Positions 9,123 to 58,597 of a stretch of DNA of 64,000 nt are shown here, piece by piece. How positions within the stretch are numbered: the first letter of the stretch is position 1; each line of letters begins with the position of its first letter. The translations under genes were made by a program, and so were the position numbers. Source of the DNA: Patescibacteria group bacterium (GTDB lineage Bacteria > Patescibacteriota > Minisyncoccia > UBA6257 > Colwellbacteraceae); assembly GCA_023380305.1 (NCBI GenBank), contig JAMCQZ010000008.1:5588-69587 (forward strand), read 5' to 3'. The notes under the pieces are model-generated. The model saw only the letters and a list, made by a program, of their open reading frames with translations, had not been told where the DNA came from and did no database searches.

Positions 9123-10020
9123 TCGAATATTCCGAAGCCACGCTCAAGAACTCCCGGAGACCGATTCCGGGCTTTTCCCCACCGATGACCACCTCGCTAA
9201 TCTTATTTAGGAACGTGAACCCGGACGCCTTGTCGCCGATTCTCCGACTTAAGGGCTCGAGTGAAACGACGCTTTCGGCCGCCGGATCGATTTTCCCGGT
9301 CGTGGCAAGGCCCTCCCCGATACGCCGATTGTTAGAGTTGAAAGAATAAGCCGTGCTCAAGAAGTCGCCGACTCCGGCGACGCCAAGGGCTGTTCTTTCT
9401 TCTCCTCCCAAAATTTTGACGATTTCGGTCATCTCCCTGATGGCGACCGACCCGAGCCAGCCCCTGATATTCTCGCCGAATCCCAATCCGTCCGCGAGAC
9501 CGATGCCCATGGCGTAAACGTTTTTGAGCACGCCGCAACTAGCGACGCCCGCTACGTCCGCCGAATAATCCACATAAACCGGAGACTTATCAAAAGCCAT
9601 TCCTATCTTTTCAAAAACATCTTCTGACTTTGAAGCGACGCAACCCGCACCTCCCAGATCAAGAGTCTCGGCGATCATCGGTCCCCCGAAAAGAGCGTAG
9701 GGCACTTCGTTCGCCACCTCTTCGATCGTTTCATGAACAAAATTGGCGCTATCCGCTTCCATCCCTTTTGAAAAACAAACCAAAACATTCTTTGGAGAAA
9801 AATAAGGCTTGATCGAGAGAAGCGCCTGTCTTAAAACCCATGAAGGCGTGCAAAGGAAAATCAATTCCGAATCCGGAATGATGTCCTTGAGCTCGGATTG
9901 GTTTTCCACCTTGCCGGGGACGCTGTCCCAAAACTCCACGTGATATTTTTTGACAGCCAAGATTTTCCCGACGGCACGACCAATTTGGCCGGCGCCCATA
10001 ATAGTGATTTGATTTGCCAT
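9109..10020 (-). CDS. gpsA: NAD(P)H-dependent glycerol-3-phosphate dehydrogenase
   Basis: N-terminal GAGQIG Rossmann motif, about 300 aa, GpsA-like C-terminal domain. Confidence 0.85.
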   Translation of the reverse strand: MANQITIMGAGQIGRAVGKILAVKKYHVEFWDSVPGKVENQSELKDIIPDSELIFLCTPSWVLRQALLSIKPYFSPKNVLVCFSKGMEADSANFVHETIEEVANEVPYALFGGPMIAETLDLGGAGCVASKSEDVFEKIGMAFDKSPVYVDYSADVAGVASCGVLKNVYAMGIGLADGLGFGENIRGWLGSVAIREMTEIVKILGGEERTALGVAGVGDFLSTAYSFNSNNRRIGEGLATTGKIDPAAESVVSLEPLSRRIGDKASGFTFLNKISEVVIGGEKPGIGLREFLSVASEYSIDND

Positions 10021-10056
10021 ATTTTAATTTTTTGTTTGCGACCTTTACCTTAAAGA

Positions 10057-10725
10057 CTATTTGATTTTAGCATCTTCAGCCATCTTTTTAAATTCGGAAA
10101 CGGTCAACGATTTCCTGACCGAAAAACCTCCGACTCTTGTCCGGACAAGGCTATGGAGATAACCGCCTGTTCCGAGTACCTCGCCCAAATCGCGGGCGAG
10201 CGACCGGATATAAACCCCGGGGCCGGTCAAAACCCTGATTTTTAAATCGGGCCACCGATAAGAAATTATTTTGATTTTTTTGATAAAAACTTTTCTAGGT
10301 TTCATTTCCGGCCGCTCCCCTCGTCTCGCCATCTTATAAGCTTCCATGCCGCGGATTTTGATGGCTGAAAAAACCGGAGGTTTTTGTTCTATCTCGCCGA
10401 CAAACCTTTTTATTTCCCGACGGACGCGCCAAAAGGACGGACGCCGCTTAACTTCACGCCGGGTTTTCGATCCTTCCTCGTCGTCGGTGGCACTTGTTTC
10501 TCCCAACCGGACGACCGCCAAATATTCCTTTTCTTTGGCCACTTCCTTATTGATTGCCTTGGTGAAGCTCCGGCCGACAGCCACCACCAACACGCCTTCG
10601 GCTAAAGGATCCAGGGTCCCGGCATGGCCGATCTTGGCTTTGCCGACGATTTTTTTTAATTCTCCGATAACCCGGTTGGAAGTCGGACCTTTTTCTTTAT
10701 AAATCGGGAAAATCCCCTCGATCAT
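10057..10725 (-). CDS. truB: tRNA pseudouridine(55) synthase
   Basis: GHAGTLDPLAEGVLVVAVG catalytic Asp motif. 222 aa. Confidence 0.9.
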   Translation of the reverse strand: MIEGIFPIYKEKGPTSNRVIGELKKIVGKAKIGHAGTLDPLAEGVLVVAVGRSFTKAINKEVAKEKEYLAVVRLGETSATDDEEGSKTRREVKRRPSFWRVRREIKRFVGEIEQKPPVFSAIKIRGMEAYKMARRGERPEMKPRKVFIKKIKIISYRWPDLKIRVLTGPGVYIRSLARDLGEVLGTGGYLHSLVRTRVGGFSVRKSLTVSEFKKMAEDAKIK

Positions 10726-52336: not shown

Positions 52337-52660
52337 TCAGGCCTTAGCCTTGCCAAGCGGCTGGGGTTTGATCGCGCCGGAATCAATCAGGTCGATCACT
52401 TGGGCGATGATGCCGCAGGTTAGACCCTTGTTGCCGGTGTCGGTTTTGGTCTGGAAAATATCTTCTGAAAGATCCAGACTGACCTCCACCGAAAAATGGT
52501 TCTTTTCCGCGGCCGGGTTCTTGTCCTCGCCGGTCCCCATCTGGCTTCGAAGATACTCGGTTAGCATGTCGGTCAAGGCCTCGTCTTTGGCGTTCGTAAA
52601 GACCTGCGTTTGGTCCTGATGCTCGCAATCAAAAGAGATTCTGGCGATCAGGATAGCCAT
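52337..52660 (-). CDS. Conserved small protein, paralog 3 (C-terminus ...GAIKPQPLGKAKA)
   Basis: MAILIARISFDCEHQDQTQVFTNAKDEALTDML... aligns along full length with paralog 1. Confidence 0.6.
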   Translation of the reverse strand: MAILIARISFDCEHQDQTQVFTNAKDEALTDMLTEYLRSQMGTGEDKNPAAEKNHFSVEVSLDLSEDIFQTKTDTGNKGLTCGIIAQVIDLIDSGAIKPQPLGKAKA

Positions 52661-52740: not shown

Positions 52741-53002
52741 TCGCCGGCGCCATTACCATCCTGAAATAACACCCGGAACCTCACATCGTCGCTTTGCTCC
52801 TCTCTCACACCTCTCGGTTTGTCCGACAACTGCCGGATCCGTTGCGGGGAACAATCAAGTTCCCCGACCCCCTCCTATACTCAGCCGGGATTAGAGCTAA
52901 TAAAAATACCCGTTACAAGAGTATTTTTAGGTAATTATCCCTCGATTTCAAGTAGTGTATTTGTTATCATACAGATGCCACTAGTTTAATAGAAAAAACG
53001 CC

Positions 53003-53700
53003 ATGAAGTACACAATCGACGATTTCAAAAAGGAGTTTACTACGGATCAGGATTGCATGAACTACATCATTCGTACTCGATACATGGAAAAGAAGCTATA
53101 CCCGATCAAGGGGCGTCCTTCTGTTTATGCTCAAGCTGGCAGGAATGCCAAGCAGGTGTCGCCTTTGGCAGGTACAATTTTTAATAAGAGCGATACTCCG
53201 CTTCACCTATGGTTCTATGCGATCTTCCTCTTGACTACTTCTAAGAATGGCGTGTCCGCGAAGGAGCTTCAAAGACATCTTGGCGTTACCTACAAGTGTG
53301 CGTGGAGGATTACTCACCGGATAAGGAGAGGTCTCATAGATAAAGGTATCTCACTCTTTGGTACAGTCAAGGTCGATGAAACGTACATTGGAGGCGAATA
53401 AGAAAGCTATAAAAAAGGTCAAAAATAATAACCAACGAATTTCCCGCATACAATAAGGTGTTAAAAAGCGGCTATAGCCACAAGAAAATCAGGCACGCTA
53501 TCAAAGAGTACGTTCGTTAAAAGGTGCACAGGAATACAATTGAGGGATTTCGGAGTCAGTTGAAGCGTTCAATCAACGGGACTTACCATGCAGTTTCTCT
53601 AAAGCATTTATAGGCTTACGTTGATGAGTTTTCTTGGAGGTATAACCGCCGTCACTCGGAGAAACCTTTGTTTGCTTTGGCTCTCGCAAGGGTTGCACGA
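53003..53700 (+). mobile_element. Decayed IS1595-family (ISXO2-like) transposase gene remnant
   Basis: N-terminal ORF ...AGTIFNKSDTPLHLWFYAIFLLTTSKNGVSAKELQRHLGVTYKCAWRITHRIRRGL...KVDETYIGGE matches the IS1595 transposase N-region, but the zinc-ribbon cysteines are lost and most of the DDE core is absent. C-terminal remnants (GYSHKKIRHAIKEYVR*, VHRNTIEGFRSQLKRSINGTYHAVSLKHL*, AYVDEFSWRYNRRHSEKPL) lie in different frames separated by stop codons. Confidence 0.65.
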
Positions 53701-53760
53701 GCTTAGATAGAATTTTATGAAATTGTTTTCGTGTAGTCATGTTATACTGTTTTTTCCAAA

Positions 53761-56256
53761 CTATTTTTCGATGGCCATAATCTCTTTCTGAGCTTCCCAT
53801 TTCTTCATGAACGCTTGTCCAATCTTCGTTTTTATTTTTTCGCGCTCCTTAGAGTTTCTTGCCACTGGCAAAAGTATTTCTTCCCAGCGATTCCCTATAT
53901 TGGGAAGCGTTGTATCTATCATAATTTTGTTATAGAGCTGTTGTTTCGTTAGATGATGGGAGAATAAGTAAAGCAGATAAAAAGCGTCTATGCCATATTT
54001 ATTTTCTTCATTTATAACTCGGAATATGAGACTATGATGGTTCAAAAGTATGCCGGTGTCGGTAGGCGAAAGTAATGCCACATCACCGATCCTATAACTT
54101 CCTTCTTTGACGAATACAATATCTTTTACTTTCAGTTCAACGCCATTGCCTTTTACGCTCTCATACACTTCGCGCGGCACCATAGCAGTCGGATTCTTGT
54201 ATACCTCCCAATCAATAATATCCGCCGCACGGACATAAGGAATTTCACCCCTCCCTTTGAATTCGCTTGGTGGTGCACCATGTCCACGGAATTTCTTTAT
54301 GATTCCTTGATCGATTAAGTCTTTTACCGATACAAATTCCAGCCCCAATTTCTTTGCTTCTTCATACAGTCCCTCAATTTTTTTCTGCCAATAATATCTG
54401 GGAACATAAATGTTGTCTTTTACGTTTGAAATATCTACAGAAAACACACACTTATTCTTAAGGCTAGAAACGTCGTCTAATTCATTCCGAATTACTATAG
54501 TGTCGTCCCATATCTCATCGGTAAATCTACAACTTTTCTCATCATATCGGTACATCTTCTCTCCTCTGTGATCATGGCCCATTTCCTCTGCCACAGCCAT
54601 GATTATCGGGTTTTGTTGTGGTTTCCCTTTTTCAAGGATTAGTAAAACAGTCTTGGCATTACAATGGGGACGAAAGGTATTATGAGGGAGGTCAATTACA
54701 GCTTTTATATTGTTATCTTTTTTAAGGTATTCAAGAATATATTTCGTGCTGGGAGCATGGAAATAAGTCTCGGGCAATACGATAGCAAGTTTGCCGCCGT
54801 CGTTGAGCATTTCCAAACACCGCTCAATAAAAAGCTCCTGTATGGCTGTATCTTTAGCTTGGTCTGTCTTAATATACACGCCATCTTTTTCTATCCATTT
54901 ATGGCCAAGGTCAAAATGCTGCGCATCTTCTTTAAAGATTTTTGTTTTACTGCCAAAGGGGGGGTTGGTGAGGATTACGTCGAATTTTTTGAATTTATCA
55001 TCCTCTACGAATAAATCTTTAGCTTTCCCTTCAAATTCTTCTGCTGTATGGAGAGAATTCTGCTGTGCGATACCGCTCTGCCCATCCCCCATGATCACCA
55101 TGTAAGCTTTGGCGATTTTTACCAGATCGATTTCTTTATCTAAGCCGAAGAAGTTTTTTTGAGCGATCTCTTTTTTAAGCGCATCAAGATTCGGAGCACC
55201 TTTATATTTCTTACTTTTGTCCATCACAAGCCAGATATGCTCTAGGGCATGGATAAGAAAACCGCCGCTACCACAAGCCGGATCGAATATGGTCTGGCCT
55301 GGTTGTGGATCGATTATTTTTATAGCCGTTTTGACTACCTCCCGTGGCGTGAAGAATTCTCCTTTTTCTCCGACAAGTTTACTTTCGGCGAATACCTCAA
55401 AGGCGTCTCCTACCGTATCTTTATCAGTTTTAAGTAAACTATATTTCTCTAGCTCACCCACTACGCGAGTGATTGATTTATCATCAAGTTTTATCTCTTC
55501 TTCTTTATCGAAAATTCCATCTCCCACGAGTTCGCTCTTAACCTGATCAAAGAGCGTCTTGACACGCTTGCTTACTTCCCTCGGATTTTCATTGAAACCG
55601 ATGCGGAATTTCGGTAGGGCATCCTGCTCATACCTCTCATCCCATATTTTGCAGAAAATAAGACGTATCATCTCATTCCCAAGCTTCTCACGTCGACTGA
55701 TATTCGTGTTTGAATATAAGGTATTGAGCAATCGCCGAAAAGTGAGCTTAAGGTTGCTCGCCGGAGATAACTTATTCTTGGCAATACGCCCTATATCCTC
55801 AAAGGTCTCTCCATTCTTGGGAATTTGAAAGACAAAATTAGTCTTCACCTCTCCGCTTATCGGATCACGATATAGGTATTCTATATCCGATCCATTAGTC
55901 CACACGCCCCATAGAGCGGACGAGGCAGACATATAGCTTGCAAGCTGTTTGACGCCCTCCTTCTTCGTTGGTCGTTTCGTCTCAACTATGCCTAAAATGT
56001 CTCGGCTCTGCTCACGCTTTTCTTTGTTAGAAGTCTTGTATACAACAATATCAGCACGCTCTTTATTCTTGGCAGAGCTTATCTCCCCGCGTTGGATATA
56101 AACTTCAATATCCATCCGCGCATAATCGTAATCATAGTCATTGAAAAGTACCTCCTCATATTCTTGTCTGACTCTCTCTTCTGGTTTTCTTATGTCTACT
56201 AGCCTGCCAGTTGCTTTATCTTTGATGCAGTCGTCTTTAAGAGTTTCGATCCTCAT
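53761..56256 (-). CDS. Single-polypeptide restriction-modification-type enzyme: N-terminal PD-(D/E)xK (HsdR_N-like) nuclease domain + gamma-class N6-adenine DNA methyltransferase + C-terminal target-recognition region (Type IIG-like)
   Basis: N-terminus RVRQEYEEVLF...ERADIVVY...GIVETKRP (D...ExK). MTase motif I FDPACGSGGFL and motif IV LTNPPFG. About 300 aa C-terminal TRD-like region. No hsdS or hsdR partner nearby. Confidence 0.55.
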   Translation of the reverse strand: MRIETLKDDCIKDKATGRLVDIRKPEERVRQEYEEVLFNDYDYDYARMDIEVYIQRGEISSAKNKERADIVVYKTSNKEKREQSRDILGIVETKRPTKKEGVKQLASYMSASSALWGVWTNGSDIEYLYRDPISGEVKTNFVFQIPKNGETFEDIGRIAKNKLSPASNLKLTFRRLLNTLYSNTNISRREKLGNEMIRLIFCKIWDERYEQDALPKFRIGFNENPREVSKRVKTLFDQVKSELVGDGIFDKEEEIKLDDKSITRVVGELEKYSLLKTDKDTVGDAFEVFAESKLVGEKGEFFTPREVVKTAIKIIDPQPGQTIFDPACGSGGFLIHALEHIWLVMDKSKKYKGAPNLDALKKEIAQKNFFGLDKEIDLVKIAKAYMVIMGDGQSGIAQQNSLHTAEEFEGKAKDLFVEDDKFKKFDVILTNPPFGSKTKIFKEDAQHFDLGHKWIEKDGVYIKTDQAKDTAIQELFIERCLEMLNDGGKLAIVLPETYFHAPSTKYILEYLKKDNNIKAVIDLPHNTFRPHCNAKTVLLILEKGKPQQNPIIMAVAEEMGHDHRGEKMYRYDEKSCRFTDEIWDDTIVIRNELDDVSSLKNKCVFSVDISNVKDNIYVPRYYWQKKIEGLYEEAKKLGLEFVSVKDLIDQGIIKKFRGHGAPPSEFKGRGEIPYVRAADIIDWEVYKNPTAMVPREVYESVKGNGVELKVKDIVFVKEGSYRIGDVALLSPTDTGILLNHHSLIFRVINEENKYGIDAFYLLYLFSHHLTKQQLYNKIMIDTTLPNIGNRWEEILLPVARNSKEREKIKTKIGQAFMKKWEAQKEIMAIEK

Positions 56257-56340
56257 ACTACAATTATCGCACGTAAATCACTATTCCTCCTACTTAAGTT
56301 TTCAACACTTGAAATGAGGGGATACTCACCATTTTTTATT

Positions 56341-56358
56341 GCTCCGACACCTGGAATC
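56341..56358. repeat. Direct repeat of tRNA-Asn 3' end (17 of 18 nt identical to 56792..56809)
   Basis: gctccgacacctggaatc versus tRNA gctccgacacctggattc. att-like duplicate bounding the GIY-YIG #1 segment. Confidence 0.6.
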
Positions 56359-56408
56359 TCACTGCTCGCCAGCGCCACTTTCGTCTTGAAAATGCCTGGA
56401 ATCAAACA

Positions 56409-56660
56409 TTAATTATTCAGATAATTTCTTAATTGTTTGTTAATATATTTTCGGCCGGATCCTCCTTTTAAAAACTTTTCTCTACCTATGGCGTCGCTCT
56501 TATTAAGATACCCCTCAAAATATATCAATCTATATGTTTTTCCTCGAGTGGTCTTAGTGTCTCCAGATTTATGACCTTTAAGCCGTTTTTTGAGATCAGC
56601 CGTAAAACCAATATACAATCCCCTGGTTTCTGTATTTTCAAGGACGTAGACAAAATACAT
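56409..56660 (-). CDS. GIY-YIG nuclease family protein (minimal, 83 aa)
   Basis: YFVYVLENTETRGLYIGFTADLKKRLKGHKSG...REKFLKG, a GIY...YIG module with conserved Arg and Glu. Confidence 0.7.
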   Translation of the reverse strand: MYFVYVLENTETRGLYIGFTADLKKRLKGHKSGDTKTTRGKTYRLIYFEGYLNKSDAIGREKFLKGGSGRKYINKQLRNYLNN

Positions 56661-56789
56661 AATTCAAGTGTCGCGCAAAATAAATTGCTTCGCAACTTAT
56701 CGCCCGACCACGAAATGTGGCTTAGTTACTACGATTGCCTGCGCCACGAGATATTAAAATACCCCCTGGGGGTATTTTAATATTTTTCG

Positions 56790-56864
56790 TGGCTCCGACA
56801 CCTGGATTCGAACCAGGAACCCGCTCCTTAACAGGGAGACGCTCTACCGTTGAGCTATGTCGGA
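56790..56864 (-). tRNA. tRNA-Asn (anticodon GTT), 75 nt including encoded CCA
   Basis: Minus strand TCCGACATAGCTCAACGGTAGAGCGTCTCCCTGTTAAGGAGCGGGTTCCTGGTTCGAATCCAGGTGTCGGAGCCA. 7-bp acceptor stem, D arm GCTC/GAGC, anticodon loop CTGTTAA, T arm CCTGG-TTCGAAT-CCAGG. Confidence 0.85.
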
Positions 56865-57109
56865 ATATGCTGTTTAATGAACTCCCGACCTCTAAAGCTT
56901 TTTAGCTGCTTTTCTCTTTTAAGAGCATCTGCTCTATTCATACATTCCTCTTGATATATTAATACCCATTCACCACTATATCTAGCAGTATAACTTTTAT
57001 CGAAGATCTTATTATTATGCAACTTTAATCTCCCTATTAAATCACTTGTCTGTCCTATATAGATTTTCTTATGATTCTTGTTAAAGATTGCGTAAACGAT
57101 GTAATTCAT
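56855..57109 (-). CDS. GIY-YIG nuclease family protein (minimal, 84 aa)
   Basis: NYIVYAIFNKNHKKIYIGQTSDLIGRLKLHNN...REKQLKSFRG. Its stop codon overlaps the 5' end of the tRNA by 10 nt. Confidence 0.7.
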   Translation of the reverse strand: MNYIVYAIFNKNHKKIYIGQTSDLIGRLKLHNNKIFDKSYTARYSGEWVLIYQEECMNRADALKREKQLKSFRGREFIKQHIPT

Positions 57110-57111
57110 TT

Positions 57112-57155
57112 AAGACGCTCTACCTCCGCCGGCTGGCGGAGAGCTTGTGTCGGAA
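57112..57155 (-). repeat. Partial duplicate of tRNA-Asn 5' half with an inserted palindromic hairpin
   Basis: Plus strand aagacgctctacc-TCCGCCGGCTGGCGGA-gagcttgtgtcgga versus tRNA gagacgctctacc-gtt-gagctatgtcgga. Begins 2 nt beyond the GIY-YIG #2 start codon. Confidence 0.55.
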
Positions 57156-57240
57156 AATCAATTTTTAAGCCCTTATCTTAAAGATAAGCGATTCTATATT
57201 AGCCAATCGAACGGTTTTTTTCAAGGGCGAGAAATGAGCG

Positions 57241-57276
57241 CATATTCAAGAAAACCGCCTTTTATCAGGCGGTTTT
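57241..57276 (-). terminator. Rho-independent terminator after DEAD-box helicase gene
   Basis: aaaaccgcct-tttatc-aggcggtttt perfect 10-bp stem; U-tract on the minus strand. Confidence 0.55.
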
Positions 57277-57283
57277 CGCGTTA

Positions 57284-58597
57284 TTATCTCATTTCTCCGC
57301 CGACAAAGGTCAGGGCAACGCCTTTTTTGTAGGCACGGCCGGTTCGACCAATGCGATGGATATAATCCTCGTAAGTCGCCGGCAAATCGTAATTAATAAC
57401 ATGGCTCACATCCGGAATATCCAATCCCCTGGCGGCGACATCGGTCGCAACCAAAATATCGATTTCTTCCGCCTTAAAAAGCCTCAAGGCTCTTTCTCTT
57501 TGGGATTGGCTCTTGTCTCCATGAATCGAAGACGCTCTAAAACCGCGTTCGGCCAAGATCTTTGAAAGCTTCTCCACTCCCCATTTAGTCTTTCCAAAAA
57601 TTAAAACTTTCTTGAAGTCATCTTTAATCAAAAGATCATGCAAGACGTCAATCTTATTCTGACCGACGCTAAGCTTTACAACATCCTGGTCGACGTTCGA
57701 TGAAGTATCCCTAATCTTAGTGGCAATTCTCACCGGATCGCGCAAAAAGTTAGATGATAACTTTTCCACTTCTTTAGAAAAAGTCGCGGAAAAGAAAAGG
57801 GTCTGCCTATCGGGGGTAATATTCCCAAGCAACAATTTAATATCGTTGATAAAACCCATATCAAGCATCCTGTCGGCTTCGTCCAAGACGACGTTGTTTA
57901 TCTGGCTTAATTTAAGGCTGCCCCTATTAAGAAGGTCTTTCAATCTTCCGGGAGTGCCGATAACAAAATCATATCCTCTTTTAAGTTGAGACACTTGGCT
58001 CCTGATATTCGCCCCGCCGATAGCCAAAACCGAATAGACTCTTAGTCCTTTTGTAAGTTCGGACAACTCGACGTTGATCTGCTCAGCCAACTCTCTTGTC
58101 GGAGCGACGATCAAGATTCTTTCGTTCTTATTCTTCAGGACTTTATTGATAAGCGGAATCAAAAAGGCGGCGGTTTTACCCGTGCCAGTATCAGCCAAAC
58201 CGATGATGTCCTTGCCGTTAATAATCTCCGGAATGGCCTGATCCTGGATGGCGGTCGGCTTATCAAAGCCTTTGTTTAAAATATTGGCTTTCAAGCGGCT
58301 GTCGATCTCAAAATCGGAAAAGCTGTAAACCGCGGCGTATTGCTTAATTGTGTTGTTCTCCGTCGCTTTATTGATGAATTTCGCTTCGTCGATCCTCTCA
58401 CTTCTTTTCGACACCCCGCGCCGAGGCCCTGTCGAATGACGAAACAAAACGTTTCGGTTAGTCCGACCGGCAAAGCCATGTCGGTTGCCGGACGACCGGC
58501 TTCCAGTCCGAGTCGAGGCTACGGATTTGGAAAATCCGCCGGAATTAGACCGTCTGGTATTGCCTCCAAATCTCCTTGTGCTTCTTGTGTTATACAT
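57284..58597 (-). CDS. DEAD-box ATP-dependent RNA helicase with Arg/Gly/Ser-rich N-terminal tail
   Basis: Q motif and GLADTGTGKT (motif I), PTRELA, VLDEADRML (DEAD), SAT, HRIGRTGRA. 437 aa. Confidence 0.9.
   Translation of the reverse strand: MYNTRSTRRFGGNTRRSNSGGFSKSVASTRTGSRSSGNRHGFAGRTNRNVLFRHSTGPRRGVSKRSERIDEAKFINKATENNTIKQYAAVYSFSDFEIDSRLKANILNKGFDKPTAIQDQAIPEIINGKDIIGLADTGTGKTAAFLIPLINKVLKNKNERILIVAPTRELAEQINVELSELTKGLRVYSVLAIGGANIRSQVSQLKRGYDFVIGTPGRLKDLLNRGSLKLSQINNVVLDEADRMLDMGFINDIKLLLGNITPDRQTLFFSATFSKEVEKLSSNFLRDPVRIATKIRDTSSNVDQDVVKLSVGQNKIDVLHDLLIKDDFKKVLIFGKTKWGVEKLSKILAERGFRASSIHGDKSQSQRERALRLFKAEEIDILVATDVAARGLDIPDVSHVINYDLPATYEDYIHRIGRTGRAYKKGVALTFVGGEMR

Follow-up and report, generated by a model that had tools for sequence, protein, structure and literature searches.

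Free-standing GIY-YIG homing genes of T-even phages, especially T4 SegB, lie beside or between tRNA genes and not within introns (PMC2330249; PMC13096335). A similar placement was found in the 64,000-nucleotide (nt) stretch of DNA analysed here and called the window (Patescibacteria group bacterium, GenBank assembly GCA_023380305.1, contig JAMCQZ010000008.1, positions 5,588 to 69,587), in which the sole tRNA gene detected by ARAGORN, an intact tRNA-Asn(GTT), is flanked on either side by a same-strand open reading frame (ORF) for a GIY-YIG protein, of 84 amino acids (aa) on its 5′ side and 83 aa on its 3′ side. We consider it reasonably probable that two different miniature cassettes, selfish, homing-like and directed at tRNA genes, have colonised the tRNA-Asn transcription unit of this locus, each being little beyond a ~250-nt gene for a minimal GIY-YIG nuclease. 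Selfish cassettes fit best because the target duplication keeps the tRNA, the occurrence is patchy and includes an empty site, copies occur in tandem and in decay, divergent subfamilies are stacked at one tRNA, and protein distances hardly follow tRNA distances. An earlier note on this DNA had described the local arrangement; beyond it, the 5′ and 3′ cassettes proved to be members of two large conserved families, here A and B, and not local accidents.

Both the SegB-type genes and the cassettes show presence or absence between relatives and local tandem amplification (here at L014, L036 and L068; such labels denote the fetched related loci that were compared with the window). The SegB-type proteins exceed 200 aa, carry DNA-binding domains and belong to the I-TevI/UvrC branch, whereas the cassette proteins, of about 83 aa, are catalytic only and Slx1/UPF0213-like; the former are phage genes and the latter cellular ones. 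Unlike the SegB-type genes, the cassettes, with their presumed nucleases, share bases with the tRNA, carry a duplicate of one portion and have a conserved hairpin. T4 SegB is the nearest functional analogue. The UPF0213 proteins BH0048 (1zg2) and EF2693 (1ywl) and eukaryotic Slx1 share the minimal GIY-YIG fold and the catalytic residues of the cassette proteins. To our knowledge, UPF0213/Slx1 genes are ordinary single-copy host genes for which no tRNA-gene linkage, target duplication or palindrome has been reported, and Slx1 needs Slx4 and a RING domain. Integrase-borne islands and prophages in tRNA genes likewise create a partial duplicate, keep the tRNA intact and leave the displaced fragment at the far end. 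The cassettes differ from them in the lack of an integrase, in their size (~0.3-0.45 kb versus kilobases), in the duplication of the tRNA 5′ half besides the 3′ end, and in the hairpin added to the displaced copy.

Nakagawa et al. (2026, PMC13011429) reported group I introns at position 35/36 of tRNA-Asn and tRNA-Asp in Patescibacteria, part of which contain HNH endonuclease genes. These introns share with the cassettes the phylum and the same tRNA gene as a hot spot of selfish elements, whereas the cassettes have no ribozyme, lie outside the mature tRNA and have their junction at nt 28/29; that paper makes no mention of GIY-YIG, palindromes or duplicated fragments. Moreover, GIY-YIG ORFs were described in 2024 in non-intron insertions of rRNA genes of the Candidate Phyla Radiation (CPR), sparsely and with no site preference, and nothing was described at tRNAs (PMC11270868). 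Both these ORFs and the cassettes are tied to structural-RNA genes of CPR bacteria in a non-intron setting; unlike the cassettes, the former are placed inside rRNA genes and have no tRNA link, target-restoring duplication or conserved hairpin. A literature search for GIY-YIG together with tRNA-Asn, Patescibacteria or CPR returned no description of the arrangement, while one elsewhere is possible, and the two widespread families are apparently undescribed.

The features of the locus are all on the minus strand of the window and read 5′ to 3′ in descending coordinates, as follows.

57196..57224, minus strand: promoter-like TTGAAA-17 nt-TAATAT, from a consensus scan; the –35/–10 block is also found upstream of the L164 tRNA.
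57141..57155, minus strand: displaced original tRNA-Asn 5′ end, positions 1-13, TTCCGACAcaAGCTC, which differs from the live tRNA by a single substitution and an additional base.
57125..57140, unstranded: 16-nt palindrome TCCGCCAGCCGGCGGA in place of D-loop bases 14-16 (AAC); its hairpin, of 6 bp and a 4-nt loop, stacks on the D-stem.
57112..57124, minus strand: displaced tRNA-Asn positions 18-28/29, GGTAGAGCGTCTT, followed by the junction with cassette DNA.
56855..57109, minus strand: family-A GIY-YIG ORF, 84 aa, tRNA-Asn 5′-side cassette (Pfam PF01541, E=2.7e-15, above the gathering score).
56790..56864, minus strand: intact tRNA-Asn(GTT), from ARAGORN and Rfam (67.2 bits, E=5.9e-14), compared with the L164 exons.
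56661..56789, minus strand: structured leader of the family-B cassette, with two hairpins.
56409..56660, minus strand: family-B GIY-YIG ORF, 83 aa, tRNA 3′-side cassette (PF01541, E=1.8e-13, above the gathering score).
56359..56408, minus strand: post-ORF stretch, with T-arm-like GATTCCAGGCA at 56403..56393 and leader-like GACGAAAGTGGCGCTGGCGAGC at 56385..56364.
56340..56357, minus strand: displaced tRNA-Asn 3′ end, positions 57-74, ATTCCAGGTGTCGGAGCA, ending in GGAGCA without an encoded CCA.

The 84-aa ORF ends in ATT CCG ACA TAG, whose last 10 nt are tRNA positions 1-10, so that its stop codon is tRNA U8-A9-G10, and its ATG is placed 2 nt after the displaced 5′ fragment. The two proteins share 39% identity, a 129-nt spacer separates the tRNA from the 83-aa ORF, and the 3′ repeat, placed 50 nt past that ORF, matches 17 of 18 tRNA positions and includes an exact 15-mer corresponding to positions 59-73. 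The earlier note had already recognised the intact tRNA, the two minimal GIY-YIG genes beside it, the ORF that ends inside the tRNA, the second 5′ copy with its inserted palindrome and the 3′ repeat; all of these were borne out, its coordinates being right within 1 nt. The promoter-like block is probably the native tRNA-Asn promoter and now precedes the displaced fragment as well as the GIY-YIG ORF and the tRNA. In the cassette reading, nt 1-28 of the live tRNA would have been regenerated, and the CCA that it encodes would be part of the 3′ cassette, at its left end; the post-ORF stretch is possibly debris of an older 3′ cassette. When the region 55800-57800 was compared with Rfam at E<=10, only the tRNA matched, the leader and the fragment belonging to no known RNA family; Intron_gpI gave no match there even at this threshold, the tRNA-Asn is uninterrupted, and neither ORF lies inside a ribozyme as genes for group I intron-encoded endonucleases do.

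It could be argued that 12-18-nt repeats arise by chance or slippage, and that the fragments reflect accidental similarity or a tRNA gene that was simply duplicated in tandem on the spot and then decayed, with no relation to the ORFs. The earlier note had itself named a failure to align better than chance as a possible objection. The tRNA 3′-end 19-mer, allowing up to 3 mismatches, matched only the tRNA and the 3′ repeat in the window, with a chance expectation of 0.02 per window and none of 100 shuffles giving two matches; the D-arm 12-mer GGTAGAGCGTCT occurred exactly only in the 5′ fragment and the tRNA (expectation 0.10 per window, again 0 of 100 shuffles with two matches). Apart from these, neither the tRNA ends nor the palindrome recurred in the window. 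These shuffle tests, together with the same architecture at ~70 independent loci, effectively refuted this explanation, to which we give hardly any credence.

The 18-nt direct repeat of the tRNA 3′ end is a classic island signature, and the fragments could be attL/attR scars of integrase islands that used the tRNA-Asn, with the GIY-YIG genes as passengers or leftovers. The low-GC variable island 3′ of the tRNA, which carries a type IIG-like restriction-modification gene and is unlike the DNA of the relative L164, also favours such scars. Nevertheless, no integrase or recombinase was found inside either cassette or within ~10 kb, contrary to the integrase/att-like insertion that the earlier note had offered as one mechanism; the neighbours encode a restriction-modification enzyme, a DEAD-box helicase, a weak helix-turn-helix (HTH) ORF, a lactate permease and others, none of them an integrase. 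Moreover, the stretches enclosed by the repeats measure just 255-430 nt, the restriction-modification island has no third tRNA fragment at its border, and the 5′ duplication with its ORF-tRNA overlap recurs in dozens of lineages without integrases. We therefore regard integrase scars as very unlikely. As a separate observation, the low-GC stretch spans ~53000-57200 (~40% versus 49% for the window) and includes the 831-aa type IIG-like gene at 53761-56256 (N6_Mtase and HSDR_N) and a 132-aa ORF at 53003-53401 with the weak HTH match; this region, at ~53-57 kb, is missing from the syntenic L164 and thus represents a variable island beside the tRNA.

A comparison in favour of the cassette reading came from L164, a Joint Genome Institute (JGI) contig whose DEAD-box helicase is 86% identical to that of the window and which preserves the gene order NrdD, activase and helicase. 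In L164, the tRNA-Asn directly follows the helicase terminator; it is flanked on neither side by a GIY-YIG ORF and lacks both the palindrome and the duplicate. The blastn alignment was collinear at 80.5% identity (L164 7866-9452 to window 58721-57148) and ran from the helicase through the intergenic region with the promoter-like block into the first bases of the displaced fragment. Since the collinear homology runs into this fragment, the palindrome-bearing piece is the original tRNA 5′ end in its ancestral place, and the ORF with the fresh copy of nt 1-28 is additional DNA. The presence or absence of a gene at the same site in close relatives, as known for homing genes, was thus observed for the 5′ cassette. 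The earlier note had proposed two tRNA-targeted insertions, each regenerating one end of the tRNA, and a comparison of flanks with relatives to find empty sites. Both held for the 5′ cassette; for the 3′ cassette the insertion has indirect support and no empty site was found, the DNA downstream of the L164 tRNA being non-homologous until window positions 52522 and 48573. In fact, the DNA 3′ of the tRNA-Asn is a variable island in both genomes. The L164 tRNA-Asn also harbors a group I intron at 35/36 with a weak HNH-like ORF (9481-10068). At L164 10090-10150, CCACGAAA is followed by a terminator-like hairpin and then by GCTCCACCGCCTGG, an inverted near-copy of the tRNA 3′ end, and this region may be a remnant of a 3′ cassette.

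The family-A protein had more than 400 relatives with 60-73% identity, mostly of 82-84 aa, and the named sources were labelled Patescibacteria. A scan of a collection with one genome per species gave at least 535 relatives, and 80 loci were fetched for analysis. Nearly all of the family-A proteins end in ...GREFIKxHIPx. Record titles naming a lineage included Roizmanbacteria, Woesebacteria, Wolfebacteria, Nomurabacteria, Saccharibacteria and WWE3, and the cassette architecture was conserved over lineages labelled Microgenomates, Parcubacteria, Saccharibacteria and WWE3. In 66 of the 80 loci, ARAGORN reported a tRNA-Asn(GTT) immediately behind the ORF, and most of the other 14 have one that the program missed, being split by a group I intron or cut by the contig end. 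The ORF stop was placed 10 nt into the tRNA in 33 loci (36 counting three 11-nt overlaps, which reflect ARAGORN start offsets), 21 nt into it in 10 loci and 37 nt into it in four. A copy of the 5′ part of the local tRNA was found upstream of almost every family-A ORF, and its first 10 nt had no mismatch to the neighbouring tRNA in ~62 of 78 loci. Since acceptor stems differ between loci and yet most fragments match their neighbouring tRNA, the displaced fragment is local. The junction between fragment and cassette peaked at tRNA position 28-29 (26 of 70 loci), the same place as in the window, and a junction at the intron site 35/36 was rejected on account of this mode.

Besides the tandem arrays, units with a decayed second ORF (L010, L012 and L028) and an additional, divergent GIY ORF accompanied by a separate fragment and by other hairpins (L043 and L082) were found. 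The same layout occurred at tRNA-Gln, where both the GIY subfamily and the hairpin differ (L100 and L119); divergent subfamilies are stacked at one tRNA in L043, L082, L100, L119 and the window. These array, decay and variant forms suggest a dynamic family-A system in which turnover is visible. GIY protein distances showed almost no correlation with tRNA distances (rho 0.05-0.11), which gives weak support to horizontal spread. Exact-protein look-ups returned only contigs identical to the window. Two side observations concern these loci. In L080 (2930-3320), the displaced fragment TCCGGCGTGGCGC... is unlike the neighbouring tRNA-Asn TCCCCTGTAGCTC..., and 2 nt lie between the ORF stop and the tRNA; this cassette may have arrived together with a foreign fragment. 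In addition, at least 13 of the 80 contigs end no more than ~160 nt after the GIY ORF, inside or just after the tRNA-Asn (L017, L023, L033, L034, L039, L065, L067, L068, L077 and others), which suggests strain heterogeneity or assembly-breaking repeats.

The palindrome of the displaced D-loop was found at nearly every family-A locus as TCCGCC-N4-GGCGGA. This sequence occurred 84 times in 410 kb of related loci, with 70 copies no more than 110 nt upstream of the ORF and the remainder mostly in other tRNA-Asn fragments or in a tRNA intron. With a single copy in the window and 70 of 84 copies at the displaced fragment, the palindrome does not have the many scattered intergenic copies of elements resembling repetitive extragenic palindromes (REP) or miniature inverted-repeat transposable elements (MITE). 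Stem variants (TCCGGC/GCCGGA, TCCGCT/AGCGGA and TTCGCT/AGCGAA) preserved pairing: 99.4% of the cells were paired, four pairs were changed on both sides, and none of 500 shuffles reached the observed values. The central four bases were variable and not always palindromic, consistent with a 6-bp stem and a 4-nt loop, and in a minor family-A form the palindrome follows T8. Two explanations of its sequence were considered. The centre as a retained D-loop triplet was rejected, AGCT being present in most loci whatever the local D-loop, and arms acting as a decoy acceptor strand were unsupported, being constant while acceptor stems vary.

Nested palindromes, such as TCCGCC-TCCGCC-AGTT-GGCGGA-T-GGCGGA, were observed no more than ~75 nt upstream of the GIY ORF in L004, L006, L017, L030, L031, L041, L051 and L052. 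In this form a 16-mer appears to have been inserted into an earlier copy, taking the place of AGC in the loop just as it takes that of the D-loop triplet, and we know of no mechanism that explains such an insertion. 3′ tRNA fragments were observed downstream of the tRNA-Asn in other genomes (L018 3365-3412, L060 1385-1460, L063 3340-3635, L011 3310-3345 and L021 3300-3385), with TCCGCC-N4-GGCGGA at the T-loop position, or with CCCTGTACC-N4-GGTACAGGG and then a CGGAGCC(A) repeat; at some of them there is no ORF between the tRNA and the fragment.

The family-B protein had ~390 relatives, and its context was analysed in 80 metagenomic loci. A same-strand tRNA was placed within 500 nt in 51 of them and typically precedes the ORF by 90-230 nt. 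The initiator tRNA-fMet, as a member of an fMet-Met-Asp cluster, is the commonest of these tRNAs, the others being Gln, Asn, Asp, Trp, His, Leu, Gly, Thr, Arg, Ser and Lys. The spacer starts at the tRNA CCA with a design, CCA|CGAAAAAT-(variable hairpin)-ATCTCGTGGC ... TTTTxGTGAGCCxCGCGAT-(hairpin)-ATTTTGCGxGxC, that follows many different tRNAs and whose basal helix covaries with the tRNA terminal bases (CCACGA/TCGTGG, CCGCGA/TCGCGG, CCGCGT/ACGCGG and CCCCGA/TCGGGG). The window spacer has exactly this leader design, with two strong hairpins and a predicted RNA fold of -57.9 kcal/mol (z=-5.9). In hairpin 1 (56792..56743), GCCACGA pairs with TCGTGGC around AAAATACCCCCAGGGGGTATTTT and includes the tRNA CCA, and hairpin 2 (56708..56670) has the form GTCGGGCGAT...ATTTTGCGCGAC. 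At other loci, tRNA-Asn genes without a 3′ cassette end in ...GGAGCA, like the leftover piece of the window, whereas the live window tRNA ends in GGAGCCA|CGAAAAA; the CCA therefore probably belongs to the cassette. A distal 3′ tRNA repeat was considered as a general feature of family B and rejected, being clear in L092 and partial in L128 and L146 among 45 loci. Leader hairpin modules were also observed as 2-4 perfect tandem copies (L126 2000-2200, L154 2360-2500 and L128 2400-2500), which indicates local amplification.

The catalytic residues of family A (Y6, Y17, R27, H31 and E66) were invariant or nearly so, their family-B equivalents (Y5, Y16, R26, H30 and E61) were conserved, and the profiles of both families aligned as full-length homologs (hhalign probability 99.4%). 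The family-B profile matched the UPF0213 structures 1zg2 (2.8e-12) and 1ywl (4e-8) as well as SLX1, and the family-A profile had no match among PDB sequences. The AlphaFold2 (AF2) model of the window family-A protein had a predicted local distance difference test (pLDDT) score of 95.5, and its top Foldseek matches were 1zg2, Slx1 and Slx1-Slx4 structures and At-HIGLE, with template modelling (TM) scores up to 0.71 for 1zg2 and Slx1; the I-TevI catalytic domain scored far lower (E ~0.8). In NCBIfam, only sub-threshold matches to TIGR01453 (group I intron endonuclease) were found, with 20-24 bits against a cut-off of 56. Judged from these models and profiles, both proteins are minimal Slx1/UPF0213-type GIY-YIG nucleases and not I-TevI-type homing enzymes; their 83-84 aa hold the catalytic domain only, without the DNA-binding module of I-TevI and Seg enzymes. 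The homing of tiny GIY-YIG elements, also put forward in the earlier note, is plausible as a candidate process, but the kinship of the proteins is Slx1-like and they have no DNA-binding domain. The Slx1-like branch is known for structure-specific cleavage, and a structure-specific substrate would be attractive for both proteins, as both cassettes are built around GC-rich hairpins. The stand-alone Slx1-like branch was defined in the GIY-YIG phylogenomics of Dunin-Horkawicz et al. (2006).

In the same study, a prokaryotic Slx1-like domain was found fused to a TrmH-like tRNA methyltransferase, hinting at RNA metabolism, and this favours a different reading, in which the locus is a host-beneficial, vertically inherited operon of housekeeping nucleases tied to tRNA genes. 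Such nucleases would, for example, act on pre-tRNA, or resolve R-loops or structured DNA where tRNA loci are highly transcribed; the tRNA-like leader with its hairpin would serve regulation, and losses would account for the patchiness. The very high conservation of protein and palindrome sequences across deep lineages also speaks for it, and the genes strictly share the orientation of the tRNA and are probably transcribed together with it. Outside these families, bacterial UPF0213 homologs are known as stable single-copy genes. Against this, the 5′ cassette is missing from a close syntenic relative with an otherwise equal tRNA-Asn, duplicated target fragments are a hallmark of insertion, and the tandem arrays with decayed ORF remnants, the stacking of divergent subfamilies at one tRNA and the near absence of correlation between protein and tRNA distances also speak against it; we judge this explanation unlikely.

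If the locus is instead the product of selfish cassettes, a mechanism can be proposed. The nuclease would break or nick an unoccupied tRNA gene, possibly recognising hairpin or cruciform DNA and not a long sequence, and the break would be repaired by copying the occupied allele with the tRNA as homology, a homing-like gene conversion. On this reading, family A, which is specific for tRNA-Asn, splits the gene near nt 28/29 and sits between the probable native promoter and the tRNA; bringing its own tRNA nt 1-28 fused to the ORF end, it keeps the tRNA intact and leaves the original 5′ part upstream with the GC-rich hairpin in its D-loop. Family B starts at the tRNA CCA end, in the window leaving the original 3′ end 50 nt beyond the ORF. 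Transcription that begins at the tRNA promoter would read through both ORFs and thereby express them, and cleavage by RNase P would take off the stop codon of family A, keeping nuclease levels low. The hairpin would interrupt the 28-nt direct repeat and so make precise excision less frequent: recombination to its right would give a dead tRNA, and only the 13 nt to its left could give a viable precise excision. It may also shield the displaced copy from cleavage.

Several points weigh against selfish cassettes. Nuclease cleavage, the target site and cassette transfer are inferred steps, and an 83-aa catalytic domain has no obvious means to recognise a long target. The displaced tRNA half is interrupted by the hairpin while an intact tRNA-Asn is regenerated next to the ORF, so that an allele with the cassette has no obvious immunity against a nuclease aimed at the tRNA. 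The palindrome is nearly invariant across very distant lineages, which exceeds the need for a spacer or for protection from deletion and is unexplained. The single empty site is compatible with a gain in the window or with a precise loss in L164; on the 3′ side, the distal tRNA repeat is rare in family B, and the presence of CCACGAAA after the L164 tRNA without an ORF makes the polarity uncertain. Finally, viral contigs, as possible vectors, contained no close relatives of family A or of family B.

A bolder version of the selfish-cassette proposal, which we hold tentatively and consider rather doubtful as a whole, is that these families represent a new class of ultra-small autonomous DNA parasites of ~0.3-0.45 kb, with one 83-aa structure-recognising Slx1-like nuclease that would recognise hairpins or cruciforms of tRNA genes and its own palindrome, and would spread by break-induced copying via tRNA homology. 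The palindrome would be both a cis site and a 'poison pill', making most excisions of the cassette yield a dead tRNA, and the endonuclease-less group I introns of tRNA-Asn would possibly be mobilised in trans. The last element relates to the finding that tRNA-Asn was split after CTGT (35/36) by group I introns (Rfam, 59-86 bits) in L008, L026, L029, L042, L064, L083 and L164, and that a family-A cassette was also present in six of these seven intron-bearing loci, at least seven such loci being found among those examined. HNH-like ORFs in the tRNA insert were found in L029, L038 and L164, in agreement with Nakagawa et al. (2026). The 2026 survey described tRNA introns as nearly immobile for want of endonuclease genes (PMC13011429); a free-standing GIY-YIG cassette beside six of seven intron-split tRNA-Asn loci is new beyond that work, and the neighbouring cassette could be a trans mobility factor for these introns.

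If confirmed, these findings would mean that the tRNA genes of Patescibacteria host a large and overlooked population of minimal-nuclease cassettes, with at least 500 loci when one genome per species is counted, and these would be among the smallest self-contained mobile elements known. The arrangement also matters for annotation and assembly, since it yields pseudo-tRNA halves, ORFs with a stop codon inside a tRNA and broken contigs, and a tiny nuclease with a defined 16-nt hairpin partner has potential as a tool. Moreover, the cassettes offer a concrete, testable function for the widespread uncharacterised UPF0213/Slx1-like proteins of bacteria and a possible trans-acting driver for the spread of tRNA introns.

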